DNA from: an uncultured Pseudomonadota bacterium
GTDB lineage: Bacteria; Myxococcota_A; Polyangia; Fen-1088
DNA: 64,000 bases
NCBI GenBank assembly: GCA_963847705.1
Contig: CAWKBC010000030.1
Location: forward strand, 480,001-544,000
Direction: 5' to 3'
Shown: one piece after another, positions 37,633 through 45,289 of the stretch
How the letters are laid out: the number at the start of each line of letters is the position of its first letter
How positions within the stretch are numbered: the stretch's first letter is position 1
Program-made: the position numbers and the translations under genes
Notes under the pieces: model-generated
Told to the model about the DNA's origin: nothing
The model's database searches: none
What the model saw: only the letters and a program-made list of their open reading frames with translations

Positions 37633-38097
37633 CTACGTCAGGGGCGCGGCCGCGGCCGAGGGGGCCTGCCCGCGCCGACGGGTCACCGCCTGCGTGGCGA
37701 GCATGCCGAGCGCCATCGACGAGACCGCCACGACCGGAGCGATACGCCCCGCGCCGAGCGCCACCAAAGCAGGGCCGGGGCAATACCCGGTCAGTCCCCA
37801 GCCGATGCCGAAGATCGCCGCTCCCGCCAGCAGCTGGGCGTCGATGCGCGTCGCGCGCGGCCAACCGAAGTCGCCGCCCAGGAAGGGATGCGCGCGGCGT
37901 TTGGCGGCACGAAAGGTCCAGTACCCGACCGCGATTCCCCCGCCCATCACGAACATCAGGCTGGGATCCCAGTTCCCCAGCACGTCGAGGAACGCCTGCA
38001 CCTTGAGCGGATTGGTCATTCCGCCCAGCCCCAGCCCGAGGGCGAAGAGAAGACCGCAGAGCGCCGCGACGGCGTTCTTCTTGCTCGCGTTGCTCAC
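37633..38097 (-). CDS. YeeE/YedE family sulfur-compound transporter subunit (PmpB-like)
   Basis: GMTNPLKVQAFLD, WDPSL, GWGLTGYCPGP; GTGA overlap with the upstream gene. Confidence 0.9.
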   Translation of the reverse strand: MSNASKKNAVAALCGLLFALGLGLGGMTNPLKVQAFLDVLGNWDPSLMFVMGGGIAVGYWTFRAAKRRAHPFLGGDFGWPRATRIDAQLLAGAAIFGIGWGLTGYCPGPALVALGAGRIAPVVAVSSMALGMLATQAVTRRRGQAPSAAAAPLT

Positions 38098-38513
38098 AGC
38101 CGGCCTCGCGTCACGGCCACGGTCAGCATCCCGGTCGCGACGAAGACCAGCGTCGCCACGATGGACCGGGACGACAGACGGCTGATCCCGCAGAGCCCGT
38201 GTCCGGAGGTGCACCCGTTGCCGAGGGTGGTGCCCACGCCGACCAGGAATCCACCGACGGCCATGGTGGCGAGCCCGGTCGAGCTGCCCGGGCCGAAGAC
38301 CCCCGGCGAGCCGAGGCGCCAGAGCAGGCCGCCGACCACCAGTCCCCCCAGAAAATACAGGCGCCAAGAGAGCTCGGCGCCCCGCGCGCCAAAGCTCCGT
38401 CCGAGGATTCCCGCGATCCCCGCGATGCGCCCGTCGAAGAGGATCAGGAGCGAGATCGCGACGCCCAGCACCAACCCGCCGAGGGTCGAGCCAAGTGGTG
38501 TGAAGCCCATCAT
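38094..38513 (-). CDS. YeeE/YedE family sulfur-compound transporter subunit (PmpA-like)
   Basis: GRIAGIAG, GNGCTSGHGLCG. Confidence 0.9.
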   Translation of the reverse strand: MMGFTPLGSTLGGLVLGVAISLLILFDGRIAGIAGILGRSFGARGAELSWRLYFLGGLVVGGLLWRLGSPGVFGPGSSTGLATMAVGGFLVGVGTTLGNGCTSGHGLCGISRLSSRSIVATLVFVATGMLTVAVTRGRL

Positions 38514-38600: not shown

Positions 38601-38915
38601 CTAATCGCGGACGAGAGGAAGGCCGGCGTTCGCCCACCCGCGGGTGCCGCCGCTGAGGTTGTAGACGTTGGTGCGGCCTTCGGCCTCCGCGACCCTCGCC
38701 GCCGTCTGGCTGCGGACGCCAGCCGCGCAGACGAAGAGGATTCCGTCGCGCGGCAAGGTGTCCTTGGGCCTGGCCCTCAGCTCACCGAGAGGGACGAGGC
38801 GAGAGCCAGGGAGGTGTCCGCTCGACCACTCTCCAGGTTCCCGCACGTCGACCACGTCGAAGTCGCCATGCGCAATCAACTCCCGAGCCTGCTCCGGACC
38901 GATGGAGTGAATCAT
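38601..38915 (-). CDS. Single-domain rhodanese (sulfurtransferase)
   Basis: VDVREPGEW, GHLPGS, active-site loop CAAGVRS, LSGGTRGW. Confidence 0.92.
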   Translation of the reverse strand: MIHSIGPEQARELIAHGDFDVVDVREPGEWSSGHLPGSRLVPLGELRARPKDTLPRDGILFVCAAGVRSQTAARVAEAEGRTNVYNLSGGTRGWANAGLPLVRD

Positions 38916-38917
38916 GT

Positions 38918-38951
38918 TGTCTACTATAACGGATGAAATGCTCGCATGCAA
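38918..38951 (-). promoter_or_regulatory. Rhodanese promoter overlapped by an 18-bp operator-like pseudo-palindrome
   Basis: Minus strand TTGCAT, 17 nt, TATAGT, 7 nt, ATG; plus strand 38918-38935 reads TGTCTACTATAACGGATG. Confidence 0.7.
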
Positions 38952-39015
38952 GACCATCCGTCGGTGCGGCCCCACGATCGCGGGCGGGCTGAGCTGGCAA
39001 GAGGGCCGGCGCGCG

Positions 39016-40912
39016 TCAGAGGCCCGGCACGCGGCCGGACTGGATGCGGAGCAGCGCGGCCACCAGCGCGTCGATGTCCTGGCAGGTGTTGTAGGGGGCC
39101 AGCGAGGCGCGGACCGTGCTCTCCAGGCCGAAGCGGCGCAGGATCGGTTGGGCGCAGTGGTGACCAGAGCGCACGGCGATCCCTTCCTGATCGAGGGCCT
39201 TGCCGACGTCCTCGGTCCGCGCACCGTCGAGGACGAACGAGAGCACGCCGGCCTTTTCGGGCGCGGTCCCGATCAGGTGAAGCCCGGGGACACGCGCCAG
39301 CTCTCCCGTCGCATACTCGAGCAGCTCGTGCTCGTAGGCGCCGATCCGCTCGCGGCCGATGGCGTTGACGTAGTCGAGCGCGGCGCCCAGGCCGACGGCG
39401 TCGGCGATGTTGCCGGTGCCCGCCTCGAACCGCAGGGGCGGCGCTTGATAGGTCGTCTTCTCGAACCGCACGTCGCTGATCATGTTCCCCCCACCTTGCC
39501 AGGGGGGCATGGCTTCCAGGACATCTGTCTTTCCGAACAGAGCCCCGATGCCGGTCGGCCCGAAGATCTTGTGGCCGGAGAAGCAGTAAAAGTCGCAGTC
39601 CAAGGCCTGGACGTCGACGGGCAGGTGCGAGACCGCCTGAGCTCCGTCGATCAAGACGCGCGCGCCATAGCGATGGGCGATCTCGATCATCTGCTTGACC
39701 GGAACGATGGTCCCGAGCGCGTTCGAGACCTGCGAGACCGAGACCAGCCGCGTGCGCGGCCCCAGCAGCTTCTCGTACTCCTCGAGAATGACCTGGCCCC
39801 GATCGTCGACCGGCGCCACCCGCAGGCGCGCGCCCGTCGCGGCGGTGAGCTGCTGCCAGGGGACGATGTTGGCGTGGTGCTCGAGCCAGGAGATCACGAT
39901 CTCGTCCCCTTCGGCGACGTGGCGACGGCCCCAGCTCTGGGCCACGAGGTTGATCGCCTCCGTCGTTCCGCGCACGAAGACGATGTTCTTGGACGAAGGG
40001 GCGTTCAAGAAGCGTGCGGTCTTGTCCCGCGCAGACTCGTAGGCGTCGGTGGCGCGGGCCGCCAGCTCGTGCGCCGCGCGATGGACGTTGGAGTTCTCGT
40101 GCTCATAGAAGTACGAGAGGCGTTCGATGACCGCGCGCGGTTTCTGCGTGGTGGCCGCGTTGTCCAGCCAGACCAGCCGCCGCCCGTGGACGCGCTCCTC
40201 CAGGATGGGGAAGTCGCGCTTGATGCTGAGGGGATTGAAGAATCCCGCCGGCGGCGGGGAGATCGGGGACCAGCTCGGGCTGGAACTCGCTGACGAGCGA
40301 GAGCCCAGGCGAGAGCTCCGGCGCCGTGGCCGGAACGGCGGTCGCGGGCACCGGCGTGGCGGGCGAAGCCGGGAACGCGGGCGACGTCGGGAACGCAGGC
40401 GCGGTGGACCACCCGGGCAAGGCGAGCGGTGCGGTCGACAGCGGCGAGGCGGGCGTCGCGGGCAGCGAGGGTGTCGCCGGCGAACCCGGCAGGGAAGGCG
40501 AACCCGGCAGGGGGGGCGAACCCGACGACGCAGGCGTAGCCGACGACGCAGGCGAACCCGGCAACGCAGGCGAACCCCACGACGCCGGCGAACCCGACGA
40601 TGCAGGTGACGGGTGCCCCGCGATCTGGAGAAAATATGGCGTCGGTGACGCCGCGGCGGGCGGCGTCTCGACCAGTGCCAGGGGCGCCGACCCCCCCAGG
40701 AAGTTGGCCATCGTCAACGGGAGCGTGCGAAGGTCGCTCTCGGTGGGCGGCGGGGCGACCGCCCAGAGGGGCGGCGTCGTTGCGGCGCCCGGCACCGGCG
40801 GCAGATGCCCCGCCGACCCGGGGGCCTGCGCAAACAGCTCCCCCGCCAGCCGGGTGATGGCAGCGGTCAGGTCGCCTTCCGGCAATCTGGCCGGTGGATC
40901 ACTTGTACTCAT
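39016..40912 (-). CDS. Family 2A encapsulin cargo cysteine desulfurase (SufS-like), interrupted by a +1 frameshift near 40240-40262
   Basis: N-terminal disordered region with ITRLAGELF and YFL; the shifted frame reads RDFPIL, WLDNAATTQKP, EHHAN, FSGHK (PLP Lys), RSGHHCA (catalytic Cys). Confidence 0.9.
40479..40604. repeat. Seven tandem 18-bp units encoding SPAxxG-like hexapeptides
   Basis: Units like ggcgaacccgacgacgca start at 40479, 40497, 40515, 40533, 40551, 40569 and 40587. Confidence 0.85.
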
Positions 40913-41855
40913 GGTAGCTGCCGACCTCGACGTCTTCGAGCACGCCGAGCGCGTCGTCCGTCAGGACCGCCGCCGAGCAGTAGAGCGACACCAGGTAAGA
41001 GGCCGCCCCCTTCTGGTCGATGCCCCGCAGGCGAACCGACAGGCTGGGGCTCACCTCTCCCGGCAGCCCGGGCTGGAACAGCCCGACGACGCCGCGTTTC
41101 TTCTCACCGGTCCGGAGCAGGAGGATGCTGGTGGTCCCGCGGCCGTCCTTCTTGCCAGCGGCGCCGGCGTGCCCCGTGATGCCGACCTTGTCCGAGGGGA
41201 TGATGGGGATTCCACGCCAGGTGATGAAGGGCGAGCCGAACAGCGACACCGTCGCCGGCGGAACGCCGCGACGGGTGCACTCCCGCCCGAACGCCGCGAT
41301 GGCCCTGGGGTGGGCCAGGAAGAACGCCGGCTCCTTCCAGACGCGGGTGATCAACTCGTCGAGATCATCCGGCGTCGGCGCACCGGCCCGCGTCGCCACC
41401 CGCGACGCCTTGCTGGCGTTGCTCAGCAGACCGTAGTTCGCGTTGTTGACCAGCTCGTGCTCCTGCCGCTCCTTCAACATCTCGATGAGGACGCCGAGCT
41501 GTTCGCGCACCTGGTCCATCGGGCTGCGATAGAGATCGGAGATCCGCGTCTGCACGTCGATGGTGGTGGTGACCGTGCTGAGCGTGTACTCGCGCGGCTG
41601 CTCTTCGTAGTCGATGAAGGCCGTCGGCAGCTCGTCGCCATCACCGGGACTGCAGGCCAGCGCGATCCCCGAGTCGGTCGCCTCTTTGACCTTGTTCACC
41701 CGGTAGGTGCCGGACTCGACCGGCACCCAGGGGAGAAGATTGACCAGCCACCGCGGCGTGACACCGATCCACTGGGGCGGTGTCTTGGTCGTGTTGGCGA
41801 GGTTGCGGGCGGCGGTTGCGCCCAGGGTGGGGTGAGATCTGTTGGCGTCGGGCAT
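40899..41855 (-). CDS. Family 2A encapsulin shell protein (SrpI / major membrane protein I type)
   Basis: AARNLANTTKTPPQ, TPRWLVNLLPWVPVESGTYRVN, GAPTPDDLDEL, YLVSLYCSAAVL; 318 aa with no cNMP insertion; stop overlaps the desulfurase start. Confidence 0.95.
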   Translation of the reverse strand: MPDANRSHPTLGATAARNLANTTKTPPQWIGVTPRWLVNLLPWVPVESGTYRVNKVKEATDSGIALACSPGDGDELPTAFIDYEEQPREYTLSTVTTTIDVQTRISDLYRSPMDQVREQLGVLIEMLKERQEHELVNNANYGLLSNASKASRVATRAGAPTPDDLDELITRVWKEPAFFLAHPRAIAAFGRECTRRGVPPATVSLFGSPFITWRGIPIIPSDKVGITGHAGAAGKKDGRGTTSILLLRTGEKKRGVVGLFQPGLPGEVSPSLSVRLRGIDQKGAASYLVSLYCSAAVLTDDALGVLEDVEVGSYHEYK

Positions 41856-42017
41856 GTCCGTCTCTTTCTGTAATCTGATCCGTGATGCGCTGGGGCGAAG
41901 CTATCGGCGCGGCGGTCGGGGGTACAAGATCCAGTTGTTGGCCGGGGCGACCCCCCAGGCTTTCTCTCCGTCAACGCGGAGCGACTTCCGCAATCGTGGA
42001 AGTGGGGGTGGAGAGGG

Positions 42018-42629
42018 TCACCTGGCGCCCTCGACGTAGGTCATCACCAGATACATCACGGCCTCGGCAGCGCCGGGATTCCGATAGCGGTGGGGCACGT
42101 CGGCGCTGAACAGGATCGCGTCTCCGACCTCCAGGCGGTGAGCGACGTTGTCGACTTCGATCTCGACGGCGCCGGCCGTCACCACCAGGTTCTCGGTCGT
42201 TCCGGGGGGGTGAGGGGGCGCTTGCTCTTCGCCCGCGGACTTGAGCCGCAGCTCGTAGAACTCCGTCCGGTTGCGGCGTTCGTCGAAGGGAAACAGGGCG
42301 CGGGAGGTGAAGGTCCCGTCTTGATTGGACAGCAACTTCCCGGAGCGCGCAGGCAAGACGATCGCAGCGCTGTTGGTCCGATCGATGAGACTGGAGAAGG
42401 GGACCTCCAGTGCCCGTGCGACCTTCCAGAGGACGTTGATGGTCGGCGCGCTCTGACCGAGCTCGACCTGGCTCAGCATCGCCCGGCTCACCCCGGAGCG
42501 GCGTGCCAGTCTTTCCAGCGACAGGCCCCGTTTGCTGCGCAATCTCCGGAGGTTCGGACCGAGGGCCGGCAGAACCTCGTCGGCAGGTCTCGACTCCAAG
42601 GCGCCGCCCCCCTTCGTCCGCTGTGGCAT
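42018..42629 (-). CDS. XRE-family HTH-cupin transcriptional regulator (SutR/PuuR-like)
   Basis: LSLERLARRSGVSRAMLSQVE...PTINVLWK; cupin HPPGTTE...DVPHRY. Confidence 0.92.
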   Translation of the reverse strand: MPQRTKGGGALESRPADEVLPALGPNLRRLRSKRGLSLERLARRSGVSRAMLSQVELGQSAPTINVLWKVARALEVPFSSLIDRTNSAAIVLPARSGKLLSNQDGTFTSRALFPFDERRNRTEFYELRLKSAGEEQAPPHPPGTTENLVVTAGAVEIEVDNVAHRLEVGDAILFSADVPHRYRNPGAAEAVMYLVMTYVEGAR

Positions 42630-42632
42630 TAA

Positions 42633-42666
42633 AACGGACTATTGTCCGTTATGATGGACGAGTCAA
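42633..42666 (-). promoter_or_regulatory. Promoter of the first regulator, with an operator-like site in the -35/-10 spacer
   Basis: Minus strand TTGACT, 17 nt, AATAGT; plus 42643-42660 reads TGTCCGTTATGATGGACG; extra inverted repeat AACGGAC-TATT-GTCCGTT at 42633-42650. Confidence 0.65.
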
Positions 42667-42700
42667 GCGCGCTGTGCGCGTCCGCGGCCCAGACCGATCG

Positions 42701-43321
42701 CTACCGTCCGTAGACGATGACGTTGTGGTAACGGGCCTCCGAGCCGCCGGAGTTCTCGTAGACGTGGGGCTTGTTGGCGTCGAACACCACCGAGTCTCCG
42801 GGGCCCAGCTCGTCGCTGTGATCTCCGACGGTCATTCGCATCGACCCGCTCAGCACCACCACGATCTCGCGTGTTCCCGGCCCGTGCGGCTCGGAGACGT
42901 GGCGCGCGCGGGCGGCCAGCCGGAGCTCGTACATCTCGATCTGGGGGATTCCCGAGGCGGGCATGAGCGGTCGGCTGTCGAACTTCCCGTCGAGCGACCG
43001 CAGAAGCTGGGCCTCTCCGCGTCTCAGGACCGACAGTCCCGTGCGCGCCTCGCCGATCAGGTCGGAGAACGTGACGCCCAGGCCGGAGGCGATCTTCCAG
43101 AGCACCCCGATCGTCGGATTGGTCTTCCGCGTCTCGATCTGGGAAAGGGCCGCCCGGCTGACGCCGGTGAGCTGCGCCAGCTGGTCGAGGGACATCTCGC
43201 GGCGCTTCCGCTGCTCGCGCAGGTGATCCGCGACGCGACCGGCCAGCTCCGCGGCCCCGATCTCGTCGCCCGAGGGGATGGGCGCACCTCGAAGACCAGC
43301 CGCCGCCTTTTTCCTGGGCAT
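42701..43321 (-). CDS. Second XRE-family HTH-cupin transcriptional regulator
   Basis: SLDQLAQLTGVSRAALSQIE...PTIGVLWK; HGPGTRE...NKPHVY. Confidence 0.92.
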   Translation of the reverse strand: MPRKKAAAGLRGAPIPSGDEIGAAELAGRVADHLREQRKRREMSLDQLAQLTGVSRAALSQIETRKTNPTIGVLWKIASGLGVTFSDLIGEARTGLSVLRRGEAQLLRSLDGKFDSRPLMPASGIPQIEMYELRLAARARHVSEPHGPGTREIVVVLSGSMRMTVGDHSDELGPGDSVVFDANKPHVYENSGGSEARYHNVIVYGR

Positions 43322-43447
43322 GGCGGGACGGTATCACGCGATGGCCTGGTCCAATATGGGCAGGGATGTCCGCGGCCCAAGGGAGAGGGCTCCAGGGACT
43401 CCTGCGGGGCAGCGGCCCGGCCCGGCCCGTCTCGCGTTGTAAACTGA

Positions 43448-43465
43448 AGTCCCGTATAGTAGACA
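43448..43465 (+). promoter_or_regulatory. Operator-like site overlapping the -10 box of the serine acetyltransferase gene
   Basis: AGTCCCGTATAGTAGACA is directly followed by the ATG at 43466. Confidence 0.7.
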
Positions 43466-44425
43466 ATGGCCACCATGCTGCGCACAGCCGATTCGCAGGC
43501 CGCCGCGTTCGACTCTTTTGCGGACGTCGTCGATGACATCTGCGCCGCCAACGAAGATCTCCTGCGCGGCCGTCGCAAGCAGCGGGGACGTCACGCGCTG
43601 CCCTCCCGGGCCGCTGTGGCCGCGGTGGTCGACGATCTGCGGTCGGTGCTGTTTCCCGGGCACTTCGGCGCGACCGACCTGGCGCCGACCAGCATCCGCT
43701 ACTACGTGGGCGCGCAGCTCGACAAATTGCAGGTCGCGCTCACCGAGCAGGTGCGCCGCGGGCTCTCCCTGGTCTGCGATCATGACGACGTCACCGGCGC
43801 GGGCGAATGCCGCCGGTGCGACCAGGAGGCCTCCGACGCCACGGAGGCTCTGGTCATTCATCTTCCGACGATCCGGAGAATGCTGGAGACCGACCTCAAG
43901 GCGGCGTTCGCCAGCGATCCCGCGGCCACCTTCCTGGACGAGACGCTCTATTGCTACCCGGGGGTCCTGGCGATCACGCAGCACCGGATCGCGCACGAGC
44001 TCTACAGTCTCTCGGTCCCCCTGATCCCGCGCATCATCTCCGAGCTGGCGCACGCGGCCACCGGGATCGACATTCACCCGGGCGCCAAGATCGGACCGTA
44101 CTTCTTCATCGATCACGGGACCGGGGTGGTCATCGGCGAGACCTGCGAGATCGGCGCGCGGGTTCGCCTCTATCAGGGGGTGACCTTGGGCGCGCGCGGA
44201 TTTCCGATCGATCCGGACGGTCAACTGTTCAAGGGCCCGCGACACCCGATCATCGGGGACGACGTCGTCGTCTACGCGGGCGCCACGGTGCTTGGCCGCG
44301 TGACGATCGGGGAGGGTGCCGTCATCGGGGGGAACGTCTGGCTCACCCGGGACGTGCCGCCCGGCGGCCGCGTCACCCAGGCCCGCCTTCAGCAGGACAC
44401 CTTCGAGGGCGGCTCGGGGATCTAG
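43466..44425 (+). CDS. cysE: Serine O-acetyltransferase (CysE/EpsC/SrpH type)
   Basis: DPAA, YPG, TGIDIHPGA, FIDHGTGVVIGET, YQGVTLG, RHP. Confidence 0.93.
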   Translation: MATMLRTADSQAAAFDSFADVVDDICAANEDLLRGRRKQRGRHALPSRAAVAAVVDDLRSVLFPGHFGATDLAPTSIRYYVGAQLDKLQVALTEQVRRGLSLVCDHDDVTGAGECRRCDQEASDATEALVIHLPTIRRMLETDLKAAFASDPAATFLDETLYCYPGVLAITQHRIAHELYSLSVPLIPRIISELAHAATGIDIHPGAKIGPYFFIDHGTGVVIGETCEIGARVRLYQGVTLGARGFPIDPDGQLFKGPRHPIIGDDVVVYAGATVLGRVTIGEGAVIGGNVWLTRDVPPGGRVTQARLQQDTFEGGSGI

Positions 44426-44443
44426 CCTCTTGCGCCGGCACCG

Positions 44444-44463
44444 CTGTCTAGTATAGTAGACAG
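44444..44463 (+). promoter_or_regulatory. Near-perfect 20-bp palindromic operator-like site upstream of the peroxiredoxin gene
   Basis: CTGTCTAGTATAGTAGACAG; contains TATAGT, with TTGCGC 16 nt upstream of it. Confidence 0.75.
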
Positions 44464-44650: not shown

Positions 44651-45289
44651 ATGGCTCTTCACATCGGAAGCATCGCGCCCGACTTCGAGCAGGATTCGAC
44701 GGAGGGAAAAATCAAGCTCCACCAGTGGCTGGGAGACAGCTGGGGCGTTCTCTTCTCCCATCCGGCCGACTTCACCCCCGTCTGCACCACCGAGCTCGGC
44801 CGGGTGGCCAAGCTGAAACCGGAGTTCGACAGGCGAAAAACCAAGGTGATCGCGCTGTCGGTCGATACGGGCGCCTCGCACAAGAACTGGATCCGCGACA
44901 TCGAGGAGACGCAGGCGACCAGGATCAACTTTCCGATCCTCGCCGACGCGGATCGCAAGGTCTCCACGCTCTACGACATGATCCATCCGGAGGCGAACGA
45001 CACCCTGACGGTGCGCTCGGTCTTCATCATCGACCCCAAGAAGAAGATCCGTCTCATCATCACCTATCCCGCCAGCACGGGCCGGAACTTCGACGAGATC
45101 CTGCGGGTCATCGATTCGCTGCAGCTCACCGAGTATCACTCGGTCGCCACCCCCGTCGACTGGAAGAACGGCGACGACGTGGTGATCGTCCCATCGCTCA
45201 AGGATCCGGACGTCCTCCGGCAGAGGTTTCCCAAGGGCTGGCGGGAGATCAAGCCGTACCTCCGCCTGACCCCGCAACCGGATCGGTAG
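44651..45289 (+). CDS. 1-Cys peroxiredoxin (Prx6 subfamily)
   Basis: RBS AGGAGG; FSHPADFTPVCTTE, YPASTGRNFDE, ATPVDW. Confidence 0.95.
   Translation: MALHIGSIAPDFEQDSTEGKIKLHQWLGDSWGVLFSHPADFTPVCTTELGRVAKLKPEFDRRKTKVIALSVDTGASHKNWIRDIEETQATRINFPILADADRKVSTLYDMIHPEANDTLTVRSVFIIDPKKKIRLIITYPASTGRNFDEILRVIDSLQLTEYHSVATPVDWKNGDDVVIVPSLKDPDVLRQRFPKGWREIKPYLRLTPQPDR

Follow-up and report, generated by a model that had tools for sequence, protein, structure and literature searches.

A shared 18-bp palindrome suggests a SutR-like XRE-cupin sulfur regulon around a family 2A encapsulin locus

What regulates the genes of a desulfurase encapsulin? For the family 2A members of this group, the available portions of PMC8049743 and PMC10836720 name no regulator or operator. 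We addressed the question in a 64,000-nucleotide stretch of DNA (hereafter, the window; contig C30, positions 480001-544000, of source genome G000) from an uncultured bacterium with a 69% GC genome, whose nearest relatives are Polyangia/Myxococcota metagenome-assembled genomes (MAGs). Here a family 2A shell gene and its cargo desulfurase lie beside two adjacent XRE-cupin genes, which we call regulators A and B. An initial annotation of the window had noted one 18-bp pseudo-palindrome at four promoters of this cluster and proposed it as the operator of the two XRE-cupin proteins. Our reading, to which we assign a probability of roughly 70% from sequence comparisons, is that the palindrome is the operator of two SutR-like regulators that would repress scavenging promoters when sulfur is plentiful and would likely activate transcription of the shell and desulfurase genes.

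The palindrome is distinct from generic -10 context

All four 18-mers are present at the annotated positions (38918..38935, 42643..42660, 43448..43465 and 44445..44462) and are the only sequences in the window that match the consensus with three or fewer mismatches, compared with 0.33 expected; none of 100 shuffles reached four. Because counting matches to this consensus within the window is circular, we added independent genome-wide controls. A matrix built from the four sites recovered 12 genome matches of at least 19 bits, comprising the four training sites and eight new ones, whereas 25 flank-permuted matrices that kept the TATA centre recovered a mean of 1.1 and a maximum of 3. Likewise, only nine strand matches (six loci) among 191 intergenic TATANT hexamers carried the flanks. 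The flanks are thus enriched beyond what a -10 box brings with it.

These numbers bear directly on the idea that AT-rich -10 boxes in a GC-rich genome produce the palindromes by chance. The TATA centre itself invites this idea, and at a threshold of 16 bits, where the real matrix found 15 genome matches and the permuted ones a mean of 6.6, one of the 25 permuted matrices reached 20. Against it stand the separation at 19 bits and the scarcity of the flanks among intergenic hexamers, together with orthologues that keep the site position and targets that are sulfur genes, and we regard chance as a negligible explanation. Generic -10 context was accordingly rejected by the permuted-matrix control and by position conservation in orthologues, and the 18-bp palindrome is a real motif in its own right. 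A transposon-end or adapter artefact was also rejected, as the window sites occupy conserved positions in independent assemblies; the left half of the palindrome resembles the Tn5 mosaic end. The annotated consensus, TGTCYRN-TATA-NYRGACA, held in outline and was refined on 177 sites to YGTCY-N2-TATA-N2-RGACR, in which positions 6-7 and 12-13 are weak (this matrix was built without loci L114-L126, L130-L136 and L148-L150, which are distant, low in GC or likely due to chance).

Predicted operators cover core promoters and are kept in relatives

Three of the palindromes hold the -10 hexamer TATAGT, and the fourth fills a promoter spacer, as first described. The predicted operator at 38918..38935 is centred on the rhodanese -10 (38923-38928, minus strand; -35 TTGCAT at 38946-38951) and ends two bases before the ATG. 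That at 43448..43465 lies over the cysE -10 (43455-43460) and abuts the ATG, with a second, weak copy at 43428-43445, 20 bp further upstream, while that at 44445..44462 lies over the peroxiredoxin -10 (44452-44457; -35 TTGCGC at 44430-44435). The remaining one, at 42643..42660, fills the spacer of the regulator A promoter, TTGACT-17-AATAGT, and is a candidate site of autoregulation. Positions over the -10 box or spacer at all four sites fit the geometry of a repressor, consistent with the repression first proposed.

The pattern of the initial annotation was matched in all 24 same-genus genomes, with 109 matches compared with 20 for the control. Phylogenetic footprinting with a cut-off of at least 14 bits likewise found the site kept in orthologous promoters: upstream of rhodanese genes in 11 of 13 cases (10 of these 20 bp before the start), of peroxiredoxin genes in 4 of 4 and of cysE in 5 of 10. 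Sites also precede 5 of 5 macro-domain orthologues and are found at all 13 loci from several families that encode a DUF2325 protein (PF10087; L001:5036-5329 and relatives), which may be a sulfur-starvation protein. The footprint matrix was refined on these same loci, and many of the DUF2325 and macro-domain loci were fetched because a site was present; the rhodanese loci, first reached via the regulator or shell gene, provide the fairer test. In other genomes and families of the class, the motif precedes cysK, sulfite reductase, phosphoadenosine phosphosulfate reductase, TauE, TauD and sbp-cysT.

Across 108 oriented sites, a -35-like hexamer at -16 (12 compared with 0 anti-oriented) places the site on the -10 box, and TTGAC at -9 to -6 (15 compared with 1) places it in the spacer. 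Weaker second copies peak at a distance of 20 bp (27 of 354; the other offsets between 12 and 60 gave 0-6), a tandem arrangement that suggests cooperative pairs of dimers.

Motif variants follow two XRE-cupin clades

Regulators A (42018..42629, minus strand) and B (42701..43321, minus strand) are paralogues with 40% identity, and both pass the cut-offs of PF01381 (HTH_3, N-terminal) and PF07883 (Cupin_2, C-terminal). A quick tree of 110 proteins, built without SutR, placed them in clade A (39 rows; Shimodaira-Hasegawa-like approximate likelihood ratio support, 87) and clade B (54 rows; 90) and set a small group from family f10 apart. Both clades are old. Their recognition helices are nearly identical. 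Clade B occurs in most genomes of the family and clade A is patchier. A single-sequence fold of regulator B had a mean predicted local distance difference test score of 42.6 and was not used.

The motif variant tracks the clade. A strict B word occurs in 8 of the 14 family genomes that carry clade B and in none of 16 family-f15 genomes with a clade-A-level match only, and the A word, RTCYNNYAWAACGGAY, was found in 11 of 12 f15 and 7 of 8 f28 genomes; of 13 A-word loci (L237-L249), 11 precede sulfur genes, one a DUF2325 gene and one lies within a gene. Five family genomes without a regulator gave no excess (7 matches compared with 9 for the control). Family f11 has clade-B-like proteins with a different recognition helix, and the strict pattern was unmatched in the three such genomes scanned.

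The relationship to Escherichia coli SutR (YdcN, b1434) points the same way. Regulators A and B are 35% and 34% identical to SutR over the whole protein (identity of regulator B to PuuR is 24%) and keep its cupin His, Glu and His residues. When the A consensus was compared with the whole MG1655 chromosome, the best match (position 1506121, one mismatch) fell between ydcO and sutR, with a second copy in the same intergenic region 32 bp away (1506089, two mismatches). The supplement of PMC8464067 lists 62 SutR peaks from chromatin immunoprecipitation with exonuclease digestion (ChIP-exo), the strongest of them at ydcN with a signal-to-noise ratio of 1344.75, the next being 140.56. This peak at the motif is the sole experimental link between the motif and an XRE-cupin protein. 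We assume a genome-version offset of about 1976 bases, which would centre the top SutR peak on the second motif copy. SutR is annotated as a dual regulator. On the strength of the clade pattern and the E. coli promoter, XRE-cupin dimers very probably bind the palindrome, as first proposed, with clade B preferring TGTCT-N8-AGACA and clade A preferring TCCG-N6-CGGA cores.

Could an unrelated factor of the Rrf2/CymR, MarR or TetR type bind these sites, leaving the XRE-cupin genes as mere regulon members or neighbours? An Rrf2 gene heads the porin-sbp-cysTW operon of the source genome and another precedes the shell gene in G015, and similar palindromes lie by a MarR-like gene in G178. The Rrf2-led operon nevertheless carries no site (3.8 bits at most in front of the Rrf2 gene on contig C8), and no preceding site was called for the Rrf2 genes of G015 and G024. 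Given also that the variant follows the XRE clade, that family genomes without an XRE gene show no excess and that the same motif occurs at the SutR-bound promoter and beside Azospirillum clade-A genes, we consider such a factor very improbable. Heterodimers of the two clades, reading hybrid sites with one TGTCT and one ACGGA half, are also improbable, if slightly less so. Adjacent paralogues and three hybrid sites in the source genome (rhodanese, arylsulfotransferase and sigma-54 activator) would suit them, but hybrid sites also occur in clade-A-only genomes (G044, G138, G145, G186 and G203) and in G004, for which clade B alone was detected; a homodimer therefore appears to tolerate them.

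The autoregulation first proposed fits one regulator and mostly not the other. Regulator A has a site at its own promoter, as do 10 of 30 clade-A orthologues when sites scoring 14 bits or more in the 300 bp before the gene are counted. Regulator B has an extended -10, TGATACCGT, at 43328-43336, and its orthologues share the extended -10 and a leaderless start, usually with no adjacent site. The -10 of a regulator B paralogue with 89% identity (C25:60261-60903) is covered by a weak site, which is kept in G001 and G021. Clade-A-like genes of Rhizobium and Mesorhizobium lie near tau/msu genes at two of four loci, and none of the four has a site above 10.5 bits.

Phased sites upstream of the shell gene

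The initial annotation had seen no obvious site at the shell gene (40899..41855, minus strand; NF041162, 486 bits, cutoff 380; PF19307) and suggested read-through from the regulator promoter. The first point does not stand, and the second need not hold. We found two degenerate copies 20 bp apart, both of the clade-A type: a proximal one at 41965..41982 (core TCCG-N6-CGGA, 41967-41980; predicted centre, about -82.5) and a distal one at 41985..42002 (core TCCA-N6-CGGA, 41987-42000). The general 177-site matrix scores this region at 0.7 bits. Downstream of the pair lies a promoter-like element for the shell gene itself (41898..41927, minus strand; -35 TTGTAC, 18 bp, -10 TAGCTT), in an arrangement that is the same in orthologous loci. 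Read-through as the only source of shell transcription is unlikely given this element. With no terminator called in the interval from regulator A to the shell gene, some read-through may still occur.

The core TCC[AG]-N6-[CT]GGA is present in 11 of 15 orthologous shell upstream regions, compared with 0.21 expected (in the source genome, 82 of 5,009 genes have it), and in 8 of 24 further shell loci outside its definition (0.38 expected). Overall, 24 of 49 shell loci carry the core, and 17 of these also have a promoter score of at least 11. In 16 of these 17, from three phyla, the proximal core starts either 64-66 or 76-77 bp before the start of the -10. With the -10 taken as -12 to -7 (start sites are predicted), the site centres would fall at -71.5 or -82.5. 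Loci with this phased pair range from Myxococcota to one Acidobacteriota MAG and three plasmids of Azospirillum, on which the clade-A gene is transcribed away from the shell gene. That Azospirillum regulator (L288:3762-4361) keeps its DNA-binding helix but not the cupin His residues; it may therefore be blind to ligand.

Class I activation by CRP peaks at -71.5 and -82.5 (PMC4132738, in the portion available), the same two positions, one helical turn apart and upstream of the -35. Class I activator sites are expected on the polymerase face at about -61.5, -71.5, -82.5 and -92.5. CRP has an unrelated fold, and contact with the alpha C-terminal domain of RNA polymerase is here predicted only. 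We lean towards dimers at the phased shell sites activating through that domain. No core site was found upstream of the shell gene in the S. elongatus pANL, Ralstonia, Variovorax, Burkholderia, A. baumannii and Methylosinus loci, and a Paraburkholderia locus has one core at a coding edge.

Repression, activation and their alternatives

The regulators would work as follows. In sulfur plenty, SutR-like dimers would be DNA-bound, and in starvation they would be released through a ligand of the cupin pocket, which likely reads a sulfur amino acid or O-acetylserine. Bound over a -10 box or spacer, they would block RNA polymerase and keep rhodanese, cysE, peroxiredoxin, regulator A and the scavenging operons off. 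It is likely that binding there blocks polymerase and that release on starvation induces target proteins poor in Cys and Met. At the shell promoter, dimers at about -82.5 and -102.5 (or -71.5 and -91.5) would instead recruit polymerase via the alpha C-terminal domain. One might go further, tentatively and with some doubt, to a switch that fills and empties a sulfur store, in which the bound state has shell and desulfurase on and rhodanese, cysE and scavenging off, and in which starvation stops filling while rhodanese remobilizes the sulfur. Activation in plenty would fit the proposals, in the portions of PMC10836720 available, that the compartment stores sulfur and that rhodanese remobilizes it.

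Several points weigh against this reading. The genomes are kin, so that counts overstate independence. No core site was found in 25 of the 49 shell loci; the data had already been seen when the promoter cut-off of 11 and an additional core pattern were set, and many shell loci are themselves kin. Among the 14 family genomes with clade B only, six match the A word, all with an AAAA centre and some within genes. Two same-genus genomes, G009 (74% complete) and G023 (80%), have sites but no regulator was found in them, and in G002 the regulator gene is cut by a contig end. In our reading, G178 has B-like palindromes within genes or beside a MarR-like gene, and other factors can therefore yield similar words. 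The Pseudomonas XRE-cupins are all repressors in the available part of PMC7901475. Finally, shell genes of S. elongatus and A. baumannii rise under sulfur starvation according to the portions of PMC8049743 and PMC10836720 available, the reverse of activation in plenty; in the loci we fetched from these two organisms, we found no XRE-cupin gene or core site upstream of the shell gene. A cascade may also operate, in which B releases A, and A activates the shell gene on starvation.

An alternative arrangement has repression at every site. The same regulators and operator would act throughout, the tandem pair at the shell gene acting by looping, by polymerase trapping or as a block to transcription reading through from the regulator gene, and shell, desulfurase and scavenging genes would rise together on starvation. 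The inhibitors studied in Pseudomonas and the starvation-induced family 2A operons of two other taxa (same sources and portions) agree with it, as do some shell loci with a site at the promoter core (L277 at -44; L111). We nevertheless judge it rather unlikely: the cores hold class I positions in strict helical phase at 16 of the 17 scored loci, which span three phyla, and rhodanese, next after the desulfurase, retains a promoter of its own under an operator at 11 of 13 loci, which would be needless under co-regulation. We therefore retain repression of scavenging promoters combined with likely activation of the shell promoter.

A predicted sulfur regulon across the source genome

The regulon first placed at the encapsulin cluster proved to be sulfur-linked, as proposed, but not confined to it. 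Sites of at least 19 bits lie on four contigs (C1, C11, C30 and C44), so that a strictly local regulon, as in the Pseudomonas XRE-cupin model, does not hold here. Outside the window, 8 of 11 matches of at least 16 bits precede sulfur genes: two serve a beta-carbonic anhydrase-metY-metA operon and a divergent DUF2325 gene; two, 20 bp apart, lie between two divergent sulfate-binding protein genes (sbp); and one each precedes a glutathione S-transferase/ribBA-ssuE operon, a sigma-54 activator fused to SsuA, ssuC/ssuA and an arylsulfotransferase gene. The remaining three lie behind an sbp stop, before a macro-domain gene and within a gene. A further ssuA-like gene scores 15.4. The expectation that a matrix scan would hit cys and ssu genes was thus borne out for ssu, but cysH, cysI, cysD, cysK and the Rrf2-porin-sbp-cysTW operon of the source genome have no strong site (best score, 4.2 bits).

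First genes behind sites (n = 16) have a median Cys plus Met content of 1.01%, compared with 2.35% for 4,571 genes (P = 2e-4); genes were called with a codon model of our own. Low Cys and Met content is an expected mark of proteins made during sulfur starvation.

Several of these loci are worth describing individually. The strongest site in the genome (C1:102347-102364, equivalent to L001:12348-12365) lies just behind sbp; next come an ATG and only a fragment of a short-chain dehydrogenase gene, not an intact gene, an arrangement that reads as an orphaned operator after a deletion or misjoin. The macro-domain gene (C30:236971-237682; L002:6972-7683) encodes an O-acetyl-ADP-ribose deacetylase-like protein with only 0.45% Cys plus Met. 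The sigma-54 activator with an SsuA-type sulfonate-binding domain (L003:8845-10950), also found in G197, is likely a second-tier regulator. The beta-carbonic anhydrase heading metY-metA is 68% identical to the beta-carbonic anhydrase near srpI on S. elongatus pANL (L001:5580-6161; L289:991-1569), and it may be a carbonyl sulfide hydrolase.

Comparison with known regulators and encapsulin operons

Taken as a whole, the system reads as a SutR-type operator that has expanded to a sulfur regulon spanning the genome, in which there are two paralogous regulators and the encapsulin promoter has sites arranged as for an activator. In E. coli, a good motif and a strong peak coincide at the sutR/ydcO promoter alone (15 pattern matches compared with 48 for controls genome-wide), whereas in the source genome the motif marks sbp, ssu, metY-metA, arylsulfotransferase, cysE and the encapsulin. 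The tandem spacing also differs (20 bp here compared with 32 bp in E. coli), as does the presence of two paralogous clades, and ydcO is absent from the annotated genes of the window cluster (it was not sought genome-wide).

ErfA, PsdR, PauR and other Pseudomonas XRE-cupins share HTH_3 and Cupin_2 domains with regulators A and B; in the available part of PMC7901475, they act as dimeric repressors on palindromic sites in core promoters, with some autoregulation. They are, however, local, repression-only and devoted to other pathways, unlike the sites on four contigs and the class I-like promoter described here. The best PDB match of our regulators (E value, 8e-24) is 1Y9Q, reported with bound D-methionine and zinc, which is also the template structure for the Pseudomonas proteins. 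CysB/Cbl (LysR), CymR (Rrf2) and McbR (TetR) belong to protein families other than XRE-cupin. Their regulon content is similar to that seen here, and the McbR box has the same five-letter half-sites in opposite orientation.

The gene content resembles the family 2A desulfurase encapsulin operons of S. elongatus (SrpI) and A. baumannii, which in the portions of PMC8049743 and PMC10836720 available combine a shell, a desulfurase with a Pro-rich leader, rhodanese and serine acetyltransferase. Unlike those co-induced genes, rhodanese, cysE and shell here each have their own promoter and site. A supplement row of PMC8049743, the part available, counts an HTH_3 neighbour for 287 of 1,273 shells; at the Variovorax locus, this neighbour is a short protein with the helix-turn-helix only and no motif nearby. 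Searches of the openly accessible literature gave no paper that describes the motif, a sulfur regulon of myxobacteria or control of encapsulins by an XRE-cupin protein, although the motif table of PMC12565409 could hold the word. Family 2A desulfurase encapsulins thus gain a named candidate regulator, an operator and a target list, and the time at which the compartment is filled or emptied becomes testable in a cultured soil bacterium, Azospirillum, which has the same arrangement. The regulon further connects SutR of E. coli, which by ChIP-exo looks to have almost a single target, with a lineage in which its relatives appear to be the master sulfur regulators, and would assign DUF2325, the macro-domain protein and the beta-carbonic anhydrase to the sulfur-starvation response.

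The gene cluster and further observations

On the minus strand, the cluster runs in the order regulator B, regulator A, shell, desulfurase, rhodanese and YeeE/YedE pair, with cysE and 1-Cys peroxiredoxin on the plus strand. The single-domain rhodanese (38601..38915, minus strand; PF00581) has one Cys, and downstream of it lie the two genes of a YeeE/YedE-type sulfur transporter pair (37633..38513, minus strand; PF04143 and DUF6691). The serine O-acetyltransferase is of the cysE/EpsC type (43466..44425, plus strand; NF041874, 156 bits, cutoff 150). Both rhodanese and serine acetyltransferase, the accessories of family 2A desulfurase encapsulins, are therefore present by profile match.

The cargo cysteine desulfurase with a Pro-rich N-terminal part (39016..40912, minus strand; NF041166) is split by a frameshift near 40241 into frames at 40103-40912 and 39016-40260, with the break between the Pro-rich leader and the catalytic part. 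Both parts are present, and the C-terminal part scores 662 bits against a cutoff of 800. At 40241, the contigs of relatives are one base shorter in three of four runs, and a G run adjoins; the frameshift is thus likely a long-read assembly error.

Small hydrophobic open reading frames of 56-83 amino acids start directly behind strong sites in several genomes (L059, L079, L081, L058 and L075, near position 1500), with no Pfam match in the three scanned. Starts of rhodanese (38915), cysE (43466) and regulator B (43321) fall 5-7 bases past their -10 boxes, and their mRNAs are therefore likely leaderless. The 1-Cys peroxiredoxin (44651..45289, plus strand) contains 0.95% Cys plus Met, compared with 1.9% in a paralogue that is 83% identical and has no site.

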